Below, one piece after another: positions 7,224-19,942 of a DNA stretch of 38,285 bases; the stretch's first letter is position 1; every line of letters begins with the position of its first letter. A program made the translations under genes and the position numbers. Under the pieces are notes generated by a model. It saw only the letters and a list, made by a program, of their open reading frames with translations, was not told where the DNA came from and ran no database searches. Source of the DNA: Candidatus Bipolaricaulota bacterium (GTDB lineage Bacteria > Bipolaricaulota > Bipolaricaulia > Bipolaricaulales > Bipolaricaulaceae). Location of the stretch: assembly GCA_014360945.1 (NCBI GenBank), contig JACIWM010000001.1, positions 1-38,285 on the forward strand, read 5' to 3'.

Positions 7224-7851
7224 GGTGCTTCCTTATCTTGAGTATTCCCGAGCGCGGACCGGGAACGGAGCCTTTAAGCACGAGGAGGCTATGCTCCTTG
7301 TCCACGGCCAGGACCTGGAGATTGCGCACGGTCACGCGCTCCGCGCCGTAGTGGCCGGGGTAGTGTTTGCCCTTGACCACCTTGCGCAAGCCCATGGGGC
7401 CCGCTGTTCCCGGCCGGCGGATCCATTTGTGGCCGTGGGACCCAGGTCGACTGTGAAAACCCCAGCGCTTGATGGTTCCAGAGAAACCCCGGCCCTTCGA
7501 AATCCCGGTCACGTCCACTAGTTCCCCTTCGGAGAAAATTTCCACTCCGACTTCCTGACCCACCGCGTATTTGGTGGGATCGGGAACTTTCACCTCAAAC
7601 AAGAATCGGCGGGGGGCAACCCCGGCCTTCTGGAAATGGCCGAGGAGAGGTTTTGTGACCTTACGTTCCTCCACGGCCACGGCGCCAAGCTGGAGGGCAG
7701 AATATCCGTCCTTTTCGGGGGTCTTTATCTGCACCACCACCGCCGGCTCCACCTGCACCACCGTGGCCGCCAGGGCCCGACCCTCCCCGTCGAACCACTG
7801 GGTCATCCCCACTTTCCTTCCCAGCATCACCCATGTCATGGCGTCCCTCAC
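7210..7851 (-). CDS. rplC: 50S ribosomal protein L3
   Basis: 213-aa ORF with [21 protein letters not shown] and GS.GH... The GTG at 7851 overlaps the S10 stop (GTGA). In-frame ATGs at 7839 and 7827 ([10 protein letters not shown]) are alternative starts. Confidence 0.94.
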
Positions 7852-8156
7852 AGCTTTATCTCCACGTCAATTCCCGCGGGGAGCTCCACATCCATGAGGG
7901 CGTTGATGGTGGCGGCCGTGGGCTCCTTTATGTCCAAAAGCCGTTTGTGGATCTTGAGCTCGAAGTGTTCCATGGACTTTTTGTCCACATGGGGCGAGCG
8001 CAAAACGGTATAGAGGTGGCGCTCCGTGGGAAGCGGAATGGGCCCACTGATCTTCGCCCGCGTGGGCTTCACCGCCTCCACGATCTTGCGCACCGCCTCG
8101 TCCACAAGTTCGTGGTCGTAGCCTTTTATGCGAATCCGGATCTTTTCCCTAGCCAT
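7848..8156 (-). CDS. rpsJ: 30S ribosomal protein S10
   Basis: 102-aa ORF with [15 protein letters not shown]......IV......[10 protein letters not shown]......[15 protein letters not shown]...HKRL.DI. The ATG at 8156 overlaps the end of fusA by 8 nt. Confidence 0.96.
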
Positions 8157-10233
8157 AACCTCGGCTCCTCAGCACCTCCCGGGCCAATTCTTCCGGCACC
8201 ACCTCGTACCGGGCCACCCGAAGGGTATGAACAGCACGTCCCTGCGTTAGGGAACGTAACTGCGTAGCGTACCCGAAAGTCTCCACCACGGGGAGGGTGC
8301 ACCGGATGATGTCCACCGTTCCCCGGGTTTGGATAGCTCGGATCTCGCCCCTTCGGCGGCCCAGATCCGAAACGACCTCGCCCAGGTACTCGCTGGGCGT
8401 GATTATATCGCCTTCGGCCACGGGCTCCAGGAGAAGAACCCCGCCCTCCTCCAAGGCGCGACGCAGCGCCTGCGTTCCCGCCGCTTCAAATGCCACATCC
8501 GTGGAGGTGAGGGGGTTGAATTTCGCTTCAAGGAGGATGGCCCGCACGTCCGTGACAGGAAAACCGCCCACGGGACTCGCGGCTAAGGCCCCTTGGATTC
8601 CTCGCCGCACTGCCTCCGCAAATTCCTTTGGGAGAATTTCCTCCGGCACCTCGGAATGAAATTCAAACCCGCCGCCGCGGGAAAGGGGCTCAAACCGCAC
8701 CCGGATCCAGGCATATTGGGGTTTCCCGCCCACGGTCTTTTCGAACTCCTCCACGATCTCCACGGGCTTGGCCAAGGTCTCCTTGTACACCACAATGGGC
8801 TTTCCCACGCGATGGGGGACCTTGAATTCCTCCCGCACTCGCCGAAGAAGCACTTCCAAATGAAGTTCGCCCATCCCGCCCACCAAAAGCTGCCCGGTGG
8901 TCTCGTCGTCCTGGACTCGGAAGGTCGGGTCCTCTTGGGCGAGCTTCATGAGGGCCTCGCGCAAGGCCGGCTCCTCTTTTTCCGACCGGGGCTCCACGGC
9001 CAAAAACACCACCGGCTCCGGAAATGCAATGGGTTCGTAGAGGATGGGATGGTCCGGATCGCACAGGGTGTTTCCGGTGTAAACTGGGGCAGAAAGGATC
9101 AGGCCCACAATGTCCCCGGCATAGGCCACGTCCATCTGTTCGCGTTTGTTGGCATGCAGGCGAAAAATGCGGGTCACCCGGGCCTTGGTCCCCTGGGTGG
9201 CGTTAAGGACCACTTGGCCCTCTTTGAGGGTTCCCGAATAGATCCGGGTGTACAAAAGCCGGTCCGCATAGGGATCGGTGAACACCTTGAACACCAACGC
9301 GGAGAAAGGTTCGTCGGGGAAAGGTTTTCGTAGCTCCTCGGTTTTTCCGTCCAGGGCGGTTCCCCGGGCGGGAGGGATGTCCAGCGGGGAGGGAAGGAAA
9401 TCCACCACGGCATCCATCACCGGCTGGACTCCGATCTTCTCGTAAGCTGAGCCGCCGAAGACCGGGACCCAAAGATGGTGGAGGGTGGCCTCCCGGATGA
9501 CCTTCACCGCCAATTCCAAGGGGATTTCCTCACCCTCCAAATATCGGACGGCGATCTCGTCCGAGACCTCGCTTAAAGTTTCAAAGAGCTTCTCTCGCCA
9601 GGCCCGGGCTTCCTCCTCCACCTCTTTCGGCACGGGAAGATACTGAAAATTCCGACCTAAACTTTCCGGGTCCCAGCGGATCGCGGAAAACCGGAGAAGA
9701 TCGATTATGCCGAGAAGGTTTCCCTCCCCATCGCGCCAGGGGTAGACGAGGGGCAGAGCTACGGCGCCCAATTTCTCCTCGATATCGGAAAAAGCGCGGA
9801 CGAAGTCGGCCTCTATGCGATCGAGTTTGTTGATGAAAGCGATGCGGGGAACGCGATACCGGTCAGCCTGACGCCAGACGGTCTCGGATTGGGATTCCAC
9901 CCCTTCCACGCCGGAGAAGACCACGATGGCTCCGTCCAAAGCGCGGAGGCTGCGCTCCACCTCCACAGTGAAGTCCACATGGCCTGGGGTGTCCACGATG
10001 TTGATCTGATGCCCGCGCCAAAAGACGGTGGTGGCGGCGGCGGTGATGGTGATTCCCCGCTCCCGCTCCTGGTCCATCCAGTCCATTTCCGTCGTGCCCT
10101 CATGGACCTCCCCCATCTTGTGAATCTTTCCCGTAAAAAAAAGAATGCGCTCAGTGAGGGTGGTTTTTCCGGCGTCGATGTGGGCGATGATCCCGATGTT
10201 TCGGACTTTACATATGTCGTAGGGGTCGGCCAT
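8149..10233 (-). CDS. fusA: Elongation factor G family GTPase (divergent domain IV tip)
   Basis: 694-aa ORF with G1 [10 protein letters not shown]2 RGITI, G3 DTPGH, G4 NKLD and the C-terminal [15 protein letters not shown]. It sits in the str-operon position after rpsG. See findings for the non-canonical domain IV loops. Confidence 0.9.
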
Positions 10234-10245
10234 GGCCAGGAGGGG

Positions 10246-10719
10246 TCACCAGCGGTAGTGGGCGAAGGCGCGGTTGGCCTCGGCCATGCGGTGGGCTTCC
10301 TCTTTGCGGGCAACGGCGCGGCCCTGACCTTTAGCGGCCTCGATGATCTCCGCGGCCAGCCTTTCCACCATCGTCTTCTCCGGCCTCTCCCGGGCCGCGT
10401 CCCGGATCCACCTCAGGGCCAACATGGTCTGGCGATGGGGCGGAACCTCAAAGGGGACCTGATAGGTGGCACCCCCCACTCGGCGGGAGCGGACCTCCAT
10501 CTTGGGCATGCAGTTCTGCACCGCCTTGATAAACGTCTCCAAGGCCGGGCCCTCCCCGCGCTTCTCGATGAGGTCGAAGGCCTCGTACACGATCCGCCGG
10601 GCCAAGGACTTCTTCCCATCCCACATGATGTAGTTGATGAACTTCTCCACGAGTTTTGAGCCGTAGCGGACATCCGGGGGCACATCCCGTCCGGGGATGA
10701 CGATGTCGTAGGTGGCCAT
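10246..10719 (-). CDS. rpsG: 30S ribosomal protein S7
   Basis: 157-aa ORF with DGKKS.A..IVY.AFD.I, PK.EVRSRRVGGATYQVP.EV and a C-terminal AFAHYRW. Confidence 0.96.
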   Translation of the reverse strand: MATYDIVIPGRDVPPDVRYGSKLVEKFINYIMWDGKKSLARRIVYEAFDLIEKRGEGPALETFIKAVQNCMPKMEVRSRRVGGATYQVPFEVPPHRQTMLALRWIRDAARERPEKTMVERLAAEIIEAAKGQGRAVARKEEAHRMAEANRAFAHYRW

Positions 10720-10720
10720 T

Positions 10721-11098
10721 TCACTCCTCCTTGGGCTTGCGCACGCCGTAGCGGGAGCGGCTCTGGCGGCGGCCCTCCACTCCGGCCGCGTCCAAAGCCC
10801 CTCGCACGATGTGGTACTTCACGCCCGGTAAGTCCTTAACCCGTCCGCCCCGCACAAGCACAATGGAGTGCTCCTGGAGGTTATGCCCCTCCCCGGGGAT
10901 GTAGGCCGTGATCTCCCGCCCGTTGGAAAGCCGCACCCGCGCCACCTTCCGAAGGGCGGAGTTCGGCTTCTTAGGGGTGCGGGTGAACACACGCAGGCAC
11001 ACCCCGCGCTTTTGCGGGCAGCCCTCCAGGGCCACGGACTTGCTCTTCCACGGGTTTGGTTTCCGTCCGTACCTCACCAGTTGATTGAACGTCGGCAT
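10721..11098 (-). CDS. rpsL: 30S ribosomal protein S12
   Basis: 125-aa ORF with [72 protein letters not shown]. Confidence 0.97.
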
Positions 11099-11116: not shown

Positions 11117-14100
11117 TTAATTATTTGCGGGCTTGGACTCAACGGACTCGTCGCGGGGGAAGCCCGTGCCCACCGGGATCTTCTTCCCCACCATGAGGCA
11201 GGCCTTGAGGCTCTCGAGGTAGTCCTCTTCCCCGCGCAGCGCCGCGTCGGAGAGGACCTTGGTGGTGCGTTCAAACGAGGCCGCCGCCAGCCAGGATTTG
11301 CGCACCAACGCCACCCGGGAGATCCTGAGGAGCTCCCGCTCGCCTTGCGGCAAGCGATATTCAGAGATACGTACAGTACGAGGCTCTCCATGGACCTCCA
11401 CCCGTATTTGCCGCACGCCCAAGGCCACCATGCGCTCCAAAAGGTCGCGGGTCAGGGTCTCGCCGGCCTCGGCCACCGTCACCCCGCCTCGGATCACGGG
11501 CGCAAGGAGCTTCGCTCCTACCAACTCCTCCCGGGCGGCCCGGATCCGCTCGTTCTCCTGGCTTAAGCGCTCCACCTCCCGCTGGAAGATCTCCAGGGGC
11601 ACGATGTCGTTGAGGAGGAAATCGGACTCTCCGGGGTCGATGATGCGCACATGGTTCAGGATTTGACGCAGTACGACCTCGAAGTGCTTGTCGTTGATAT
11701 CCACGCCCTGGGTCTTGTACACGCGCTGAAGCTCGGTGAGAAGGTATTCGAAGGCCTTGCGAACTCCGGCCACTTCCATGAGGTACTGGGGCGGGACGAC
11801 CCCTTTGGAGATGGGATCGCCGCGCTCCACCTTGTCGCCCTCCCGGACGATAGCGACTTCCGTGCACTCCACCCGGGCTCGGAAGCGGAAGCGCACATGA
11901 CATAGGTCCTCGTCGCCGCGGATCTCCTCCACCACCACGGTGTCGGAGAGGGCGGGAAGGCCAAGGCGCAGGACTTCTTGGCCGGCTCGGACCGGGCCGC
12001 CATGTTCCACCCGCGGCTCGATCCCCTCGGGAACGGGCACGATCAATCCCCGGCTGGACCGGTGCCGAATGGCCAAGGACCCGGGGGCAAGGAGAACCCG
12101 TCCGGAAGTTTCCGCCTGGAGGGTAAGGGGGCGGGAACGGGTGGTGAGTTTCGTCCCCTCCGGGACCTCCTCCCCGTTCTTCACCAGGATTTGCGCTCCG
12201 TACGGAACCTCGTAGGAATAGGTGCGGCCGTCCTGGCCGTGGAGGAGGATGTACCGATGCTTTTTGTCCTCCGTGATTTCTACCCGTCCGGCCACCTCCG
12301 CCACCACCGCCTCCTGGTGGAATTCCTCCGTGAGGCTTGCGCCCTCCTCCACTTCCTCACCGTGGGCCACCTTGGCCTTCACCCCTTGGGGCAGGGTGTA
12401 GAACCGGTCCAAATCATCGTCGAGGATGGCCAAGTATTTGCGCCCATCCTCGGTGAAGAAGAAGGCGCGGCCGTCCACCGGGCTTTTCAGGGAGAAGAGC
12501 TTGGAGCTATCCACCTCCTCACCCTCGGCCACCTGGAGGAGGGCGGCGGGCACGACCACCGTGCGGGGATCGGACTCGATCTCCACGATGTCTTGGCCGG
12601 TGCGGGCCGTCTCAAGTTTCACCACGCGCCCGGTCAAGGGTGCCACCGCGGCATGGGGAGCTTTCGTGGTTTTACGGGCTTCAAAAAGCTCTTCCGCTCT
12701 AGGAAGGCCCTGGGTGATGTCCACTCCGGCCACACCACCGGTGTGGAAGGTTCTCATAGTGAGCTGGGTTCCCGGCTCGCCGATGGATTGGGCAGCGATG
12801 ATTCCCACGGCCGTGCCCTTCTCCACGAGCCGGTGGAACGCGAGATCCATGCCGTAGCAAAGCTGGCAGACGCCGCCCGCTGTCTGGCAGGTCACAGGCG
12901 AGCGCACAATGAACCTCGGCCGCACCCGGATCTTCTCCACCCCCGCCGCCCGCAGCTCTTGGACAAGCTCCGGGGTGAGGGCCTCGTTTTCTCGGACAAT
13001 GACGTAGCCCTTTTCGGGGTGGTACACGTCCCGTACGGACTTGGCCAAATGCGCGCGCTCCTCCACCTTAGGCGCGGAAAGGTCCAAATCCACCTCCAGC
13101 CGGCCCACCTTCTCCGCAGTGACCCGATCGATCATCGTTCCTGCAGGGACCAGGACCTCGCCGGTGGCCGGATGGTAGATGGGCTCGGCCGTGACCCGGC
13201 CATAGAGCCGTTCGGGAATGTCCTCCATGATTTCCCCTTTGGGGGCGAAATAGAGGGGATCGATCTCCACCCCTTGCTTAGTTCCGCAATCGTATTCCTT
13301 GACAATCACGTCCACGCAGGCGTCCACCAATCGCCGGGTGAGGTACCCAGCGGTGGCCGTGCGCAGGGCCGTATCGGCCGTGCCTTTACGCGCGCCGTGG
13401 GTGGAGATGAAGTACTCGAAGATGGAAAGGCCCTCCCGGAAGTTGGAGATCACCGGCCACTCGATAACTCGCCCTTGCGGATCGGCCATGGGGCCACGCA
13501 TTCCCGCCAGTTGTTTCACTTGGCCGGATGAGCCCCGGGCACCGGAGGCCACAATCCCATACACGGGGTTGAACGGGTTGCGCGCGAGGTTCTGCATGGT
13601 GGCCTTCTCCACCCGGTTCACTGTCTCCCGCCACACCTGGGTCACGGCCTGATACCGTTGCTCCGCGGTGCACAGGCCCCGCTGGTACATGTGTTGGATG
13701 CGGTCCACCTTCTCTTGGGCTTCCTGGACGATCTCCCACTTTTCCGGCGGGATTTCGCAGTCGGGGACGGAGATGGTGAGACCGGAGAGGGTGGCGAACC
13801 TGAACCCAAGCTCCTTGAGCTGGTCCAAAACCTCCGCGGTCTTCTCCCAGCCGTGGCGAAGATAGCACTCCTCGATCTTGCGGCGAGTGCGGCGCGAGTC
13901 CCAAACAAGGTTGTAGTCCCGAAGATCAGGGGGAAGCACCTGGTTTAGAAGGGCTCGGCCAAGGGTCGTCTCCACAAGCTTCCCGTCGATCCTGATCTTC
14001 ACCGGCGCGTGAAGATCGAGGTGTCCCAGTTCCCAAGCTTTAAGGGCCTCCTCAATGGAGCGGAAGGCTTTCCCTTTGCCCTTTCCCTGGGGATTGAGGA

Positions 14101-16045
14101 TGGTGAGGTAGTAAAAGCCGTAGATCTGGTCCTGGGTGGGGGTGGCCAAGGGCCGGCCATGCGCCGGGGAGAGGATGTTCTTCGCGGAAAGCATGATCTC
14201 TTTGGCCTCCCACACGGCATCCTTGGAGAGAGGAAGGTGTACGGCCATCTGATCCCCGTCGAAGTCGGCGTTGTAGGGCGGACATACATGGGGATGGATT
14301 TGGATGGCATCCCCGTCCACGAGGACCGGCTCAAAGGCTTGGATGGAAAGGCGATGTAGGGTGGGGGCGCGGTTGAGGAGGACCGGATATTCCTTCACCA
14401 GCTTTTCCAAAGCATCCCAAACCTCGGGAAGCTCGCCGGCCAGGGCCCGGTTTTTCACCTCGTCGTAGTCGGCATAAGGAAGGCCCTCCACCTGGGCGAG
14501 GATGAAGGGTTTGAAAAGCTCCAGGGCCATCTTCTTGGGGATGCCGCACTGATGAAGCTTGAGCTTGGGGTTGACCACGATCACGGCCCGGCCGGAGTAG
14601 TCCACGCGGCGGCCCAAAAGATGCCGGCGTAGCCTCCCCTGCTTCCCTTGGATGCGCTCGGAAAGGCTCTTGAGGGGCCGACCATCTCGACCCTTGATGG
14701 GGTTGTCCTTCTTCTCGTTGTGGATGAGGGCATCCACCGCTTCCTGGAGCATGCGCCGCTCGTTGCGGAGGATGATCTCCGGCGCGCCCATTTCCATGAG
14801 CTTCTTTAGCCGGTTATTGCGGTTGATGATGCGCCGATAAAGGTCGTTGAGGTCGGTGGTGGCGAATTTCCCGCCCTCCAGTTGGATCATGGGCCGCAGA
14901 GCCGGGGGAAGGACGGGGATGACCTCGAGAACCATGTCCTGGGGCCTATTTCCGGAGCGGCGAAGCTGCTCCACCACTTCCAGCCGGTGCAGGATCCGCC
15001 GGCGGTCGGTCTGGCTCACCGTGCGGTCCAGCTCCTCCCAGAGCTCCTCGGCCAGGGCATCCAAATCCAGCGCGGCCAAAAGTTTCTTGATCCCCTCCGC
15101 GCCGGTGGCCGCCTCAAATCCGTCCGGATAGGCTCGCTGATAGGCCCGCACCTCCAGGGAGGAGAGCATCTGCCCAACTTTTAGAGGGACGTTCTCCGCC
15201 ACCCGGACCACAAGGTGGGCGAGGTTGTCCACCACCTCCACCACCGGATGGCCCTCCACCCCCTCGTAGCGGGCGCGGAGCATATCGAACATCGTTTGCG
15301 AACAAATTTCCTTGACCGGCTGCTCGCAGAGAAGCTCCCCTTCCGCCACCTCATCCCCATCCTCCACGAAAAGCTCGGCGTCCAGGGTCACGGGATATTC
15401 ATGGTGGCCGACCACCAAAACCCTGAAGGTCTCACCGTTTTGGAGCTTTCTCTCCTCGAACCGGACCCGTCCGGCCTCCTCGGCCACGATGCGCGGGCTT
15501 TCCGTGATCAAAAACGCCCGCTCCGCCTGGAAGGTGAAGACGCTCTGGAGGATGCGGAGCTCTGTGGCGTATAAGGTCTCCCCGGGTTTTATTTTTGGAG
15601 AGGCCGACTGGGTCACGATGTACAGCTCCTCCCTGGCCGTTTCCGTCTCGTAATACGCGATGCGCCTAAGATCCCGGCGTTTTATGCCCAAGAGGCGGGA
15701 AAGGGGGCTGGCCACGCCTTTCAGATACCAGAAGTGCACCACCGGGCTGGCCAGACGGATATGGCCCATGTTCACCCGGCGCACCGAGGAGTCCGTCACC
15801 AACACCCCGCACTTGTCACAGGTTATGCCCTCGTAGCGTTTCCCTCGATACTTTCCGCAGGCACACTCGTAGTCGTTCTCCGGACCAAATATCTCCTCCG
15901 CATAAAGCCCGCCCCGCTCGGGCTTATGCGTGCGGTAGTTGATGGTCTCGGAGTTCGTCACCTCCCCTTTGGACCAGGAAAGGATTTCCTCCGGGGAGGC
16001 CAAACCGATACGAATCCTAGCGATATCGTCACCAGAGATGGGCAC
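11117..16045 (-). CDS. rpoC: DNA-directed RNA polymerase subunit beta' (1642 aa, with lineage-specific insertions)
   Basis: Signatures present: the N-terminal zinc motif CACGKY...CDKCG, the catalytic [14 protein letters not shown] (nt 14252-14272), the trigger-loop region [11 protein letters not shown], and the C-terminal [18 protein letters not shown] start at 16045. Confidence 0.97.
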
Positions 16046-17879: not shown

Positions 17880-19318
17880 GAGGGATTCGCCTTTTTGTCT
17901 GAGCGCAAAAATTTTGCTGCTTCCTTTAGCGCTTCTTCTCGAGAGGAGATCTCCCCGGCTAGAATTCGCTCGTGTATTGCGGAGAGGATTTTTCCCAACT
18001 CCGGCCCGGGGCGGATGCCCATAACCAGAAGATCGTGGCCAGAAATGAGTTGGCGGGCGCGCTTCACTCCCTGAACCCGTCGCAGATGCACCAAAAGCCG
18101 TACCGTTTGAGCCAGCACCGGAAGCCAGGCGCGGCTGCGGTGTGCGGAGGCCTCGGCATCACAGATGAGGACCCGCAAAAGATCTGAAAACTTTGGAAAA
18201 CGCCTGACACATTGGGAAAGCGGGTGCTCTTCTTTTTCGCCGGTCTCTAAAAGAAGGACCTGTTTTCCCAGGCCCATCTCGGGAAGGCGAGCCACCCGCA
18301 TGTGCTCCGAAACAAGGAAGCTCACGTGCTCGATATCTTTGCGGGGGAAGCGCAGTCTTGTGAGGGCTTCCTCCGCGATCCGGGCCCCCAGTTGGCAATG
18401 GCCGGCCATGTGCTCCCCGCCGGAACGGGCTAGGGCTAAGGGTTTCCCGGCGTCGTGGAAGAGGATGGCAAGTTTCAAAAGTGGCTCGTCCCAAATTCCG
18501 TCAGCAACACGCAGGGCAAAAACGGTGTGGGAAAACACGTCTCCTTCGGGATGGTATTCCTCCGGCTGGGGTACTCCCCGCAGGCGGCCGATCTCGGGAA
18601 GGATATGCTCTAAAAGCCCAAGATCCGCGAGGAGTTCCAGTCCTTCCGCGGAGCGCGGGGTAGCAAGGATGCGCACCAGTTCATCTCGGATGCGTTCCCA
18701 AGAGATCCTCAAGATCTTTTCTGCGTGTCGGCGAATGGCGTCCGCGGTGTTCTTCTCCAGTTGGAATCCAAGCTGGCACACGAACCGCACGGCCCGGAGC
18801 ATGCGCAGGTAATCCTCGGAGAACCGGCGGTCCGGGTCGCCAATAGTGCGGATGAGCCTAGCTTGGAGATCTGCAATTCCACCCACAAGGTCGATGACCT
18901 CGCCGTCAGGGGTGGCGGCCAACCCGTTTACCGTGAAGTCCCGGCGTTTGAGGTCCTCAGCGAGGTCTGCCCATCGCACGTGTTCGGGGCGCCGGCCGTC
19001 CCGATAGCCTTCCTCCGTGCGGAATGTGGCCACTTCGTATTGCCGGCCATCCCTTCCCACGACCACCATCACCCCGAACGCCTCGCCCACGGGTAGGACC
19101 CGGTGTTTTGGAAAAAGGCGAGGAATCTCGTGCGGGGGCGCGGAGGTGGCGATATCCACGTCTTGGGGAGAGAAGGGAAGATCGGAAAGCTCCGCCAAAA
19201 TGGCGTCCCGTACTACCCCACCCACCAGAACCACGGTGTGCCCGGCGGCGCTCAGCCCCTCCACGATCTCCTTGGCCGTGGGATGTTCTTGCCAAATCCG
19301 CTCGATGGGGATACGCAC
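17876..19318 (-). CDS. cca: CCA-adding tRNA nucleotidyltransferase with HD domain
   Basis: 480-aa ORF with the class II nucleotidyltransferase head VGGVVRDA...DVDIAT, RRDFT.NGLA, ED.LR.LRAVRF and the HD motif LFHDAGKP. GTG start at 19318. Confidence 0.88.
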   Translation of the reverse strand: MRIPIERIWQEHPTAKEIVEGLSAAGHTVVLVGGVVRDAILAELSDLPFSPQDVDIATSAPPHEIPRLFPKHRVLPVGEAFGVMVVVGRDGRQYEVATFRTEEGYRDGRRPEHVRWADLAEDLKRRDFTVNGLAATPDGEVIDLVGGIADLQARLIRTIGDPDRRFSEDYLRMLRAVRFVCQLGFQLEKNTADAIRRHAEKILRISWERIRDELVRILATPRSAEGLELLADLGLLEHILPEIGRLRGVPQPEEYHPEGDVFSHTVFALRVADGIWDEPLLKLAILFHDAGKPLALARSGGEHMAGHCQLGARIAEEALTRLRFPRKDIEHVSFLVSEHMRVARLPEMGLGKQVLLLETGEKEEHPLSQCVRRFPKFSDLLRVLICDAEASAHRSRAWLPVLAQTVRLLVHLRRVQGVKRARQLISGHDLLVMGIRPGPELGKILSAIHERILAGEISSREEALKEAAKFLRSDKKANPS

Positions 19319-19384: not shown

Positions 19385-19942
19385 ATGGAGCACGCGGTGG
19401 TCCGGGAGGCCCGCGAACGCATGGGAAAGACTTTGGACGTCTTTCGCCAGGAGCTGGGGAAGGTCCATACCGGGCGGGCTAACCCTGCGTTGTTGGAGGA
19501 CATCCGTGTCGATTATTACGGGGTCCCCACCCCCTTGAAACAATTGGCCAACATCGTTGCTCCCGATCCTGATCTTTTGGTGGTGCGGCCGTTCGATAAG
19601 TCCCAAATCGGAGCCATCGAGAAGGCCATTCGCGCTGCGGACCTGGGCCTCAACCCCCAAAACGACGGACAGCTCATTCGCATAAAGGTTCCCCGCCTTT
19701 CCGAGGAGCGCCGAGACGAGCTGGCTAAGCTCGTGGCCAAAAAGGCGGAGGAGGCAAAAATTGCACTCCGTAACATCCGGCGCGAACTAAAAGAAAGGCT
19801 TGAGCAAGAGAAAAAGGACGGAAAAATTTCCGAGGACGACTTTTTCCGCCTCCAAAAGGAATTGGATCAGGTGACCTCCGATTTCACCAAAAAAGTGGAG
19901 GAGTTGGCGGAAAAGAAGGCCGAGGAAATGCGCACCCTCTGA
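19385..19942 (+). CDS. frr: Ribosome recycling factor
   Basis: 185-aa protein from the internal ATG at 19385. It has L...F...L.KVHTGRANPALLE.I.VDYYG..TPL.Q.A.I..PD...L.V.P.D... and RNIRR. The ORF-track N-terminal extension overlaps cca on the opposite strand. Confidence 0.95.
   Translation: MEHAVVREARERMGKTLDVFRQELGKVHTGRANPALLEDIRVDYYGVPTPLKQLANIVAPDPDLLVVRPFDKSQIGAIEKAIRAADLGLNPQNDGQLIRIKVPRLSEERRDELAKLVAKKAEEAKIALRNIRRELKERLEQEKKDGKISEDDFFRLQKELDQVTSDFTKKVEELAEKKAEEMRTL

Follow-up and report, generated by a model that had tools for sequence, protein, structure and literature searches.

A str-operon elongation factor G with a decayed domain IV tip in Bipolaricaulaceae, accompanied by a canonical-tip EF-G of most likely horizontal origin

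Elongation factor G (EF-G) is commonly treated as a single, vertically inherited and nearly invariant marker, and translocation is ascribed to the copy encoded in the str operon, an assumption stated by Margus et al. (2011). The str locus of a Bipolaricaulota bacterium raises the question whether this assumption can be extended to all lineages. The window analysed here, i.e., the whole stretch of 38,285 nucleotides of contig JACIWM010000001.1 (assembly GCA_014360945.1), comes from a hot-spring Bipolaricaulota, related contigs being titled Candidatus Bipolaricaulota or Acetothermia. Its minus strand carries a str-operon fusA gene (P0001; positions 8149-10233) for a protein of 694 amino acids, identified as EF-G by translation of the open reading frame (ORF), by TIGR00484, by Pfam and by alignment to Thermus EF-G. 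In this gene, a str orthologue of the family Bipolaricaulaceae (hereafter the family), the tRNA-contacting tip of domain IV has decayed, and a further EF-G of the same genome, most likely acquired laterally, keeps this tip.

The tip loops of E. coli EF-G hold the anticodon loop and the mRNA during translocation. Three of their residues, Gln507, His583 and Asp586, form hydrogen bonds to the anticodon loop of the tRNA that is being translocated, and their mutation leads to slower translocation and more -1 frameshifting (PMC7749637). In the window protein, loop I comprises residues 501-510 (positions 8704-8733, minus strand; canonical counterpart TGGRGQYGHV) and loop II residues 568-582 (8488-8532, minus strand; canonical counterpart L.DGSYHEVDSSE.AF). 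Aligned by phmmer to EF-G of T. thermophilus (1dar; 727 bits), the protein shows zero gaps across domain IV, by which misalignment of the loops is ruled out. The alignment pairs GGRGQYGHV of Thermus with GGKPQYAWI of the window protein (residues 502-510), and DGSYHEVDSSEMAF of Thermus with window residues 569-582, which contain KFNPLTSTD where the canonical sequence is SYH.VDSSE. The codons of loop I read GGC GGG AAA CCC CAA TAT GCC TGG ATC (8730-8704), those for Q-Y-A-W lying at 8718-8707 as the initial annotation had given them, and the codons of loop II read CTT GAA GCG AAA TTC AAC CCC CTC ACC TCC ACG GAT GTG GCA TTT (8532-8488). The region given in that annotation has its left end at 8497, the final base of D579, and thus stops three codons before F582, a trivial difference.

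Residue equivalents were assigned by motif correspondence with the E. coli numbering (PMC7749637). Gly506 is replaced by Pro505, His510 by Trp509, His583 by Asn573 and Asp586 by Thr576, and Ser588 and Glu589 have become Thr and Asp. Of the contact residues defined in E. coli, just the equivalents of Gln507 (Q506) and Ser587 (Ser577) are kept. The His of loop I and the YH.VDSS motif of loop II are indeed lost, as had been proposed from the sequence of this locus. The tip matches the canonical consensus at 5 of 23 positions, while the lowest match among 27 str-type EF-Gs of other phyla is 0.70, and two further EF-Gs of the same genome, referred to below as copy 2 and copy 3, match at 16/23 and 17/23 positions, respectively. 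The tip loops are thus non-canonical, and the change is real and far beyond normal EF-G variation.

In about 15 phyla the tip nearly always conforms to [KR]Q[ST]GG.GQ[YF][GA]H and DGS.H.VDS[SN][ED]. The str copies of the genus share a loop I of their own: GG[KR]PQYAW is present in all 11 of them, this loop being invariant there, and the equivalent of Asp586 is absent from all 11, with E, T, S or A in its place. The His583 equivalent is still a His in 9 of the 11, Asn573 being specific to the window species; its codon is AAC where relatives have CAT or CAC, and a DNA comparison with two genus-mates reduces this to one C-to-A change. Across the str copies of the family, the His583 position is occupied by H, N, K, D or S and the first glycine of loop I by G, A or T, and the tips differ genus by genus with no common derived motif.

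By score, architecture, GTPase motifs, synteny and orthology, the window gene is nevertheless an EF-G of the EFG I type, yet without the conserved tip. It scores 802.3 bits against TIGR00484, above the cut-off of 659.4, and all five domains are found by Pfam (GTP_EFTU, EFG_II (EF-G_D2), EFG_III, EFG_IV and EFG_C). The motifs G1, G2 (RGITI), G3 with the catalytic His, and G4 (NKLD) are intact, in agreement with the initial annotation, in which the G domain and domain V appeared normal. With canonical EF-G (T. thermophilus, E. coli fusA; TIGR00484) it shares the five domains, the length, a domain IV free of indels, G1-G4 with RGITI, the str-operon position and the above-cut-off score, and it differs from it at 18 of the 23 tip positions, including the equivalents of Gly506, His510, His583 and Asp586. 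In our main tree (89 rows, IQ-TREE, PMSF (posterior mean site frequency)), with which smaller trees agree, the str-operon EF-Gs of Bipolaricaulia form one clade (support 99) that also holds members with canonical tips, and the str copies of the family are a subclade of it (support 100). Since the window gene is nested in this clade, it is the vertically inherited str orthologue, the tip of which diverged in place. The earlier suggestion of a divergent paralogue sitting in the canonical locus has to be turned around: the foreign gene is, most likely, the one with the canonical tip.

A search of the genome located this second EF-G, which had been predicted to exist elsewhere, along with a third EF-G-like gene. 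Copy 2 (contig C130, 4126-6189; 687 amino acids) lies outside the str operon and has a canonical tip, GGRGQYAHI and GSFHSVDSSD. It is 46% identical to the str copy and scores 852 bits on TIGR00484, above the score of the str gene itself. Copy 3 (contig C133, 17069-19006, minus strand; locus L003 1474-3408; 645 amino acids) is 32% identical to the str copy and likewise has a canonical tip (GGHGQFGEV and YHEVDSSE). Its GTPase centre is degenerate, with GHSGAGKT, VTPGL and NMMD in place of the G1, G3 and G4 motifs; in VTPGL the catalytic His and Asp are both gone, and RGITI is kept. Of the 18 family genomes (0.9-1.8 Mb), 17 have all three genes, one of these genomes being closed in a single contig of 1.70 Mb, and the sole exception is 58% complete, so the diverged str copy is not the only EF-G of its clade. 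Other Bipolaricaulia families have the str copy and copy 3 only, except that copy 2 also occurs in part of one sister family (f4); copy 3 was found in every Bipolaricaulia genome searched and might contribute to translocation where copy 2 is absent. Copy 2 was not seen in two sister-family genomes, G021 and G030 (loci L031 and L029; 90-93% complete); in their sole EF-G I the His583 equivalent is Asn or Ser, and the first glycine of loop I is replaced by Thr or Ala.

The bin from which the window derives comprises 1.28 Mb in 187 contigs and is 81% complete, with an estimated contamination of 3.4%. The GC content of its contigs longer than 3 kb lies between 0.34 and 0.63, the lowest 5% having essentially no tetranucleotide correlation to the rest. 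Some foreign contigs are therefore present in the bin, and the three contigs that bear the EF-G genes (C1, C130 and C133), which fit the GC and tetranucleotide profile of the genome, are not among them. Since all three genes recur in 17 of 18 genomes including the closed one, contamination does not explain the extra copies.

As to its origin, copy 2 falls into a clade of its own (support 100), which is joined first by Planctomycetota and then by Verrucomicrobiota and Lentisphaerota, and copy 2 together with the non-str genes of the Planctomycetes-Verrucomicrobia-Chlamydiae (PVC) group is a clade with support 99-100. These PVC relatives do not stand beside S12/S7, where nearly all other reference EF-Gs do. 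Monophyly of copy 2 with the Bipolaricaulia str copies was rejected by an approximately unbiased (AU) test (47 rows, LG+G4; p=0.0006, difference in log-likelihood 125), the tested group having been named after the tree had been seen. Gain of copy 2 by horizontal transfer is most likely. Two Planctomycetota sequences (L242, L243) and one from an unclassified bacterium (L130) nest within the Bipolaricaulota copy 2 clade with support 100, which implies more than one inter-phylum transfer of copy-2-type EF-G. Because Planctomycetota sequences lie inside this clade, transfer between the phyla is clear; its direction is only probable.

The constraint on the tip is reversed between the two copies. 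Tip identity divided by the identity of the rest of the protein gives a ratio of 0.82 in the str copy of the family (0.93 within the genus), as compared with 1.30 in copy 2, 1.28 in Bipolaricaulia without copy 2, 1.30 in other phyla and 1.41 in copy 3. The range is 1.14-1.41 over seven other EF-G groups, and only in the family str copy is the ratio inverted. Moreover, 40 reference EF-Gs have 162 columns in which conservation reaches 93% or more; the genus str copy deviates at 13 of these columns, six of them in the 25 columns of domain IV versus seven in the other 137 (Fisher p=0.006), and copy 2 deviates at six, none in domain IV. Over 36 pairs within the genus, the pN/pS ratio of the str copy is 0.25 in the tip versus 0.15 in the rest, and that of copy 2 is 0.11 versus 0.26. 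The whole-gene ratios of nonsynonymous to synonymous substitution (dN/dS) are 0.10 for the str copy and 0.15 for copy 2, so that purifying selection acts on both genes and both are functional. The tip of copy 2 is canonical in every Bipolaricaulota genome having this gene and is under stronger constraint than any other part of the protein. The str copy is more constrained overall, and its tip is no longer specially protected, though not neutral either. Outside domain IV, the str copies of the whole family are changed at four positions that the reference EF-Gs conserve to at least 93%: D224S in the G' region (window ~9562-9564) and, in domain II (window ~9094-9262), G324D/E, A377G and G380L/A/S/T.

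A parallel is seen in Planctomycetota. The genomes compared were five of PVC type and nine further Planctomycetota, all carrying a copy-2-type gene, and the other EF-G of these genomes has an altered tip. In all ten Planctomycetota genomes that carry such a gene (str-type loci L226, L227, L233-L240; non-str loci L219, L220, L242-L250) the tip of the str EF-G is altered, strongly so in nine, and Planctomycetota without it have a canonical str tip in 9 of 12 cases. Wherever the flanks could be checked, the altered-tip EF-G of these PVC and Planctomycetota genomes is the one in S12-S7 context, with tips such as GDLVRYAQ with RFKAPGTDE, GGHPQFAR, GEKPHFGH and AGREHYAA. When Planctomycetota and Bipolaricaulia are pooled, a degenerate tip occurs in 17 of 21 genomes with a second copy versus 4 of 18 without (raw Fisher p=0.0004), a value that overstates the association, since the comparison of phylogenetically independent pairs (n=7) is not significant (median p ~0.38 in a sign test; about four pairs in the same direction, one opposite and two with no difference). 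The association between the presence of a second copy and decay of the str tip is suggestive.

The str locus itself is conventional in its order. According to Margus et al. (2011), EFG I sits in the str operon after rpsL-rpsG, and in the window rpsL (S12; 10721-11098), the first gene of the str cluster, rpsG (S7; 10246-10719), fusA and rpsJ (S10; 7848-8156) follow one another on the minus strand; the order S12-S7-EF-G-S10 is also found in other Bipolaricaulota. No tuf gene lies between fusA and rpsJ at this locus. A gap of 12 nucleotides separates rpsG from fusA, and the start of rpsJ overlaps the end of fusA by 8 nucleotides (8149-8156). The spacer (10234-10245) is pyrimidine-rich, CCCCTCCTGGCC, with no Shine-Dalgarno sequence for fusA; this absence and the overlap with rpsJ suggest translational coupling of fusA to its neighbours rpsG and rpsJ. 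A weak Shine-Dalgarno sequence was considered, and discarded, as a sign that the str copy is down-regulated: it is weak or absent before str fusA throughout the class, whether copy 2 is present or not, and the one informative feature is the strong Shine-Dalgarno sequence that copy 2 has throughout, of GGAGG type in 18 of 18 genomes. An rpoC-like ORF of 1642 amino acids occupies window positions 11117-16045 (minus strand).

In the window genome ftsZ lies 70 nucleotides upstream of copy 2 (locus L002 72-1421). It was not found there in four genus-mates (L113-L116), although these conserve the divergent ribD on the downstream side, so that the gene content upstream of copy 2 is not stable. The tuf gene (C133, 14565-15788) lies on the same strand as copy 3, 1.3 kb downstream, with a CBS-domain gene and a YjbQ-like gene in between and a NusG-like gene after tuf (C133, 12987-19006), so that the gene for EF-Tu is placed near a pseudo-GTPase EF-G, outside the str operon.

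From these observations we infer which protein does which job. At about even confidence, we propose a division of labour, predicted from sequence comparison, in which copy 2 would translocate and the str copy would have a tip-independent role, probably recycling. The proposal draws on the reversed constraint, the retention of three EF-Gs by genomes of very small size, the strong Shine-Dalgarno sequence before copy 2, the presence of ribosome recycling factor (RRF), and the literature. RRF is the partner that EF-G needs for recycling. It is encoded in the window by frr (19385-19942, plus strand; the likely Met start is 19385, the listed ORF starting at 19103), and residues 114-276 of the long ORF match Pfam RRF with 206 bits. 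In the Bipolaricaulaceae, and less markedly in a sister family, the str tip loops would have been freed from strong purifying selection, and copy 2 would perform the tip-dependent, frame-keeping translocation. The str copy would have retained ribosome binding and GTP hydrolysis and might serve mainly in a role that does without precise tip contacts, most plausibly the RRF-assisted splitting of post-termination ribosomes, perhaps with some residual translocation. The evolutionary course that this suggests is put forward with more reserve: a PVC-type xenologue may have become the translocase, and the native str EF-G may, in place, have become a recycling or other tip-independent factor.

Published mutants and paralogues are consistent with such a separation. 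Deletion of loop I, or the substitution H583K, cripples translocation and leaves RRF-dependent recycling intact (PMC4666400). The glycines of loop I are altered in the recycling-only EF-G2mt and in EF-G2 of B. burgdorferi (PMC8203779), and the same change of the first Gly to Ala or Thr is seen in several str copies of the family. Of the two EF-Gs of P. aeruginosa, EF-G1A, encoded in the str operon, is 75-fold less efficient in translocation than EF-G1B, encoded outside it (PMC3832671).

Several observations weigh against a division of labour, and they make up most of the case for a serious though rather unlikely alternative, in which the str copy would still be the main bifunctional EF-G, its tip being an alternative competent solution, possibly compensated elsewhere in the protein, and copy 2 would be an accessory factor serving, e.g., under stress, for higher fidelity or for particular mRNAs. 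The str copy evolves more slowly than copy 2, its identity outside the tip within the genus being 88.5% compared with 76.9%, and its lower dN/dS (0.10 vs 0.15) is what is expected of the more abundant or essential factor. It has kept the str-operon position and the apparent translational coupling to rpsG and rpsJ. Some constraint is left on its tip, which is still under purifying selection (pN/pS 0.25), with loop I invariant in 11 of 11 genus members and Gln506, Tyr507 and Ser577 kept. Codon usage, taken as a proxy for expression and scored as log-odds relative to 14 ribosomal protein genes, does not separate the EF-G copies: the str copy is at the 74th percentile, copy 2 at the 70th and copy 3 at the 85th, with tuf at the 99th and rpoC at the 96th. 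G021 and G030, in which copy 2 was not seen and Asn or Ser takes the place of His583, show that some tip changes are tolerated in a sole EF-G I and do not fit the simple picture in which a second copy permits decay, and the paired comparison given above adds no significant support to that picture. In E. coli, H583R slows translocation just about twofold (PMC7749637), and S588P, which affects the integrity of loop II, harms translocation and recycling alike (PMC4666400). What speaks against a bifunctional str copy is that the tips of the family vary freely where about 15 phyla are otherwise invariant, that the inverted ratio of tip to rest is confined to the str copy, that small genomes retain a copy 2 with canonical tip and strong Shine-Dalgarno sequence, and that Planctomycetota present the same pattern.

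Neofunctionalisation of the str copy, in which Pro505, Trp509, Asn573 and Thr576 would make a new specific contact in the service of a new ribosome role such as rescue, protection or exit from hibernation, appears improbable. The fixation of GG[KR]PQYAW within the genus, the residual constraint on the tip and the family-wide changes at G324, A377 and G380 of domain II could be taken in its favour. Each genus has its own tip, however, which resembles relaxation rather than a new selected state, and the score of the window protein on tet_protect is 388.6 bits, far under the cut-off of 775, a result by which a ribosomal protection protein of the Tet(M)/Tet(O) type was likewise rejected. An artefact (misalignment, a pseudogene, an assembly error or a contaminant second EF-G) deserves hardly any credence despite the 187 contigs of the bin, its estimated contamination and the contigs with GC down to 0.34, because the alignment to Thermus EF-G is gap-free, the ORF is intact with a dN/dS of 0.10, the three contigs match the genome in composition, and the three genes recur in a closed relative and 16 other genomes of the family; misalignment, pseudogene and bin contamination are all rejected.

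Returning to the proposed division of labour, a close precedent is the EF-G1A/EF-G1B pair of P. aeruginosa (Palmer et al., 2013; PMC3832671), which likewise consists of two EF-G I proteins, one in the str operon and one elsewhere, the str-encoded EF-G1A being a poor translocase with a suggested role in recycling and EF-G1B the translocase. That pair is 84% identical, compared with 46% for the str copy and copy 2; no tip-loop changes are reported for EF-G1A, and the copy outside the operon is in Bipolaricaulota a xenologue.

Translocation and recycling are also split over two EF-Gs in spdEFG1/spdEFG2, which occur in spirochaetes, planctomycetes and deltaproteobacteria, and in mitochondrial EF-G1mt/EF-G2mt (PMC3150367, PMC4342817, PMC8203779). 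The recycling-only spdEFG2/mtEFG2 members have an altered loop I at the domain IV tip, and in the Planctomycetota that we examined it is the str-context copy that bears a degenerate tip, as in the window. In detail the cases differ, since spdEFG2/mtEFG2 substitute one of the two loop I glycines and the window protein keeps GG and has Pro for the next Gly; moreover, Bipolaricaulota have a third EF-G. An assignment of the window gene to spdEFG2 was rejected, as it nests among Bipolaricaulia EF-G I in trees that contained no named spdEFG2 reference sequence, and scores 727 bits with Thermus EF-G compared with 435 with EF-G2mt.

On the side of copy 2, the three-residue (KDG-type) switch I insertion of spdEFG1 is absent from copy 2 and its PVC relatives, and copy 2 scores 757 bits with Thermus EF-G versus 522 with EF-G1mt. 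A Planctomycetota sequence, L270, has a KGGGDG insertion in switch I, finds its best PDB match in EF-G1mt and fell into the copy 2 clade in one quick LG+G4 tree (support 96). Mitochondrial EF-G scores were abandoned as a means of assigning the paralogues to spdEFG1 or spdEFG2: only L270 is clearly EF-G1mt-like, and copy 2, the window gene and one planctomycete str copy all score best with Thermus EF-G.

EFG II proteins are described as having a poorly conserved G domain, no RGITI and many indels (PMC3150367). The window gene was rejected as a member of this group on account of its intact G motifs and RGITI, its gap-free alignment and its scores far below the cut-offs of NF009377 and NF058620. 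EFG II types (T. thermophilus EF-G-2, M. smegmatis EF-G2, Bacteroides EF-G2), whose GTPase activity is weak or lacking, resemble copy 3 instead, which is short (645 amino acids), with degenerate G motifs and a canonical tip, but differs from them in keeping RGITI. A full-text literature search returned no paper on EF-G paralogues in Bipolaricaulota.

The Bipolaricaulaceae case is probably a variant of the split-duty EF-G theme known from mitochondria and Borrelia. If this is true, a thermophilic phylum with small genomes would join the few cases in which the duties of EF-G are split, and the split would have been reached by a different route, namely by horizontal gain of a gene and decay of the tip of the resident one. 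The family would then constitute a natural mutagenesis series of the tip, which could separate the requirements of recycling from those of translocation, and the choice of 'fusA' by synteny, in annotation and in marker phylogenies, would pick the wrong functional homologue in these lineages. Taken together with the Planctomycetota, the loss of the str tip wherever the genome has a second EF-G with a competent tip would, if true, amount to a repeatable rule of EF-G evolution.

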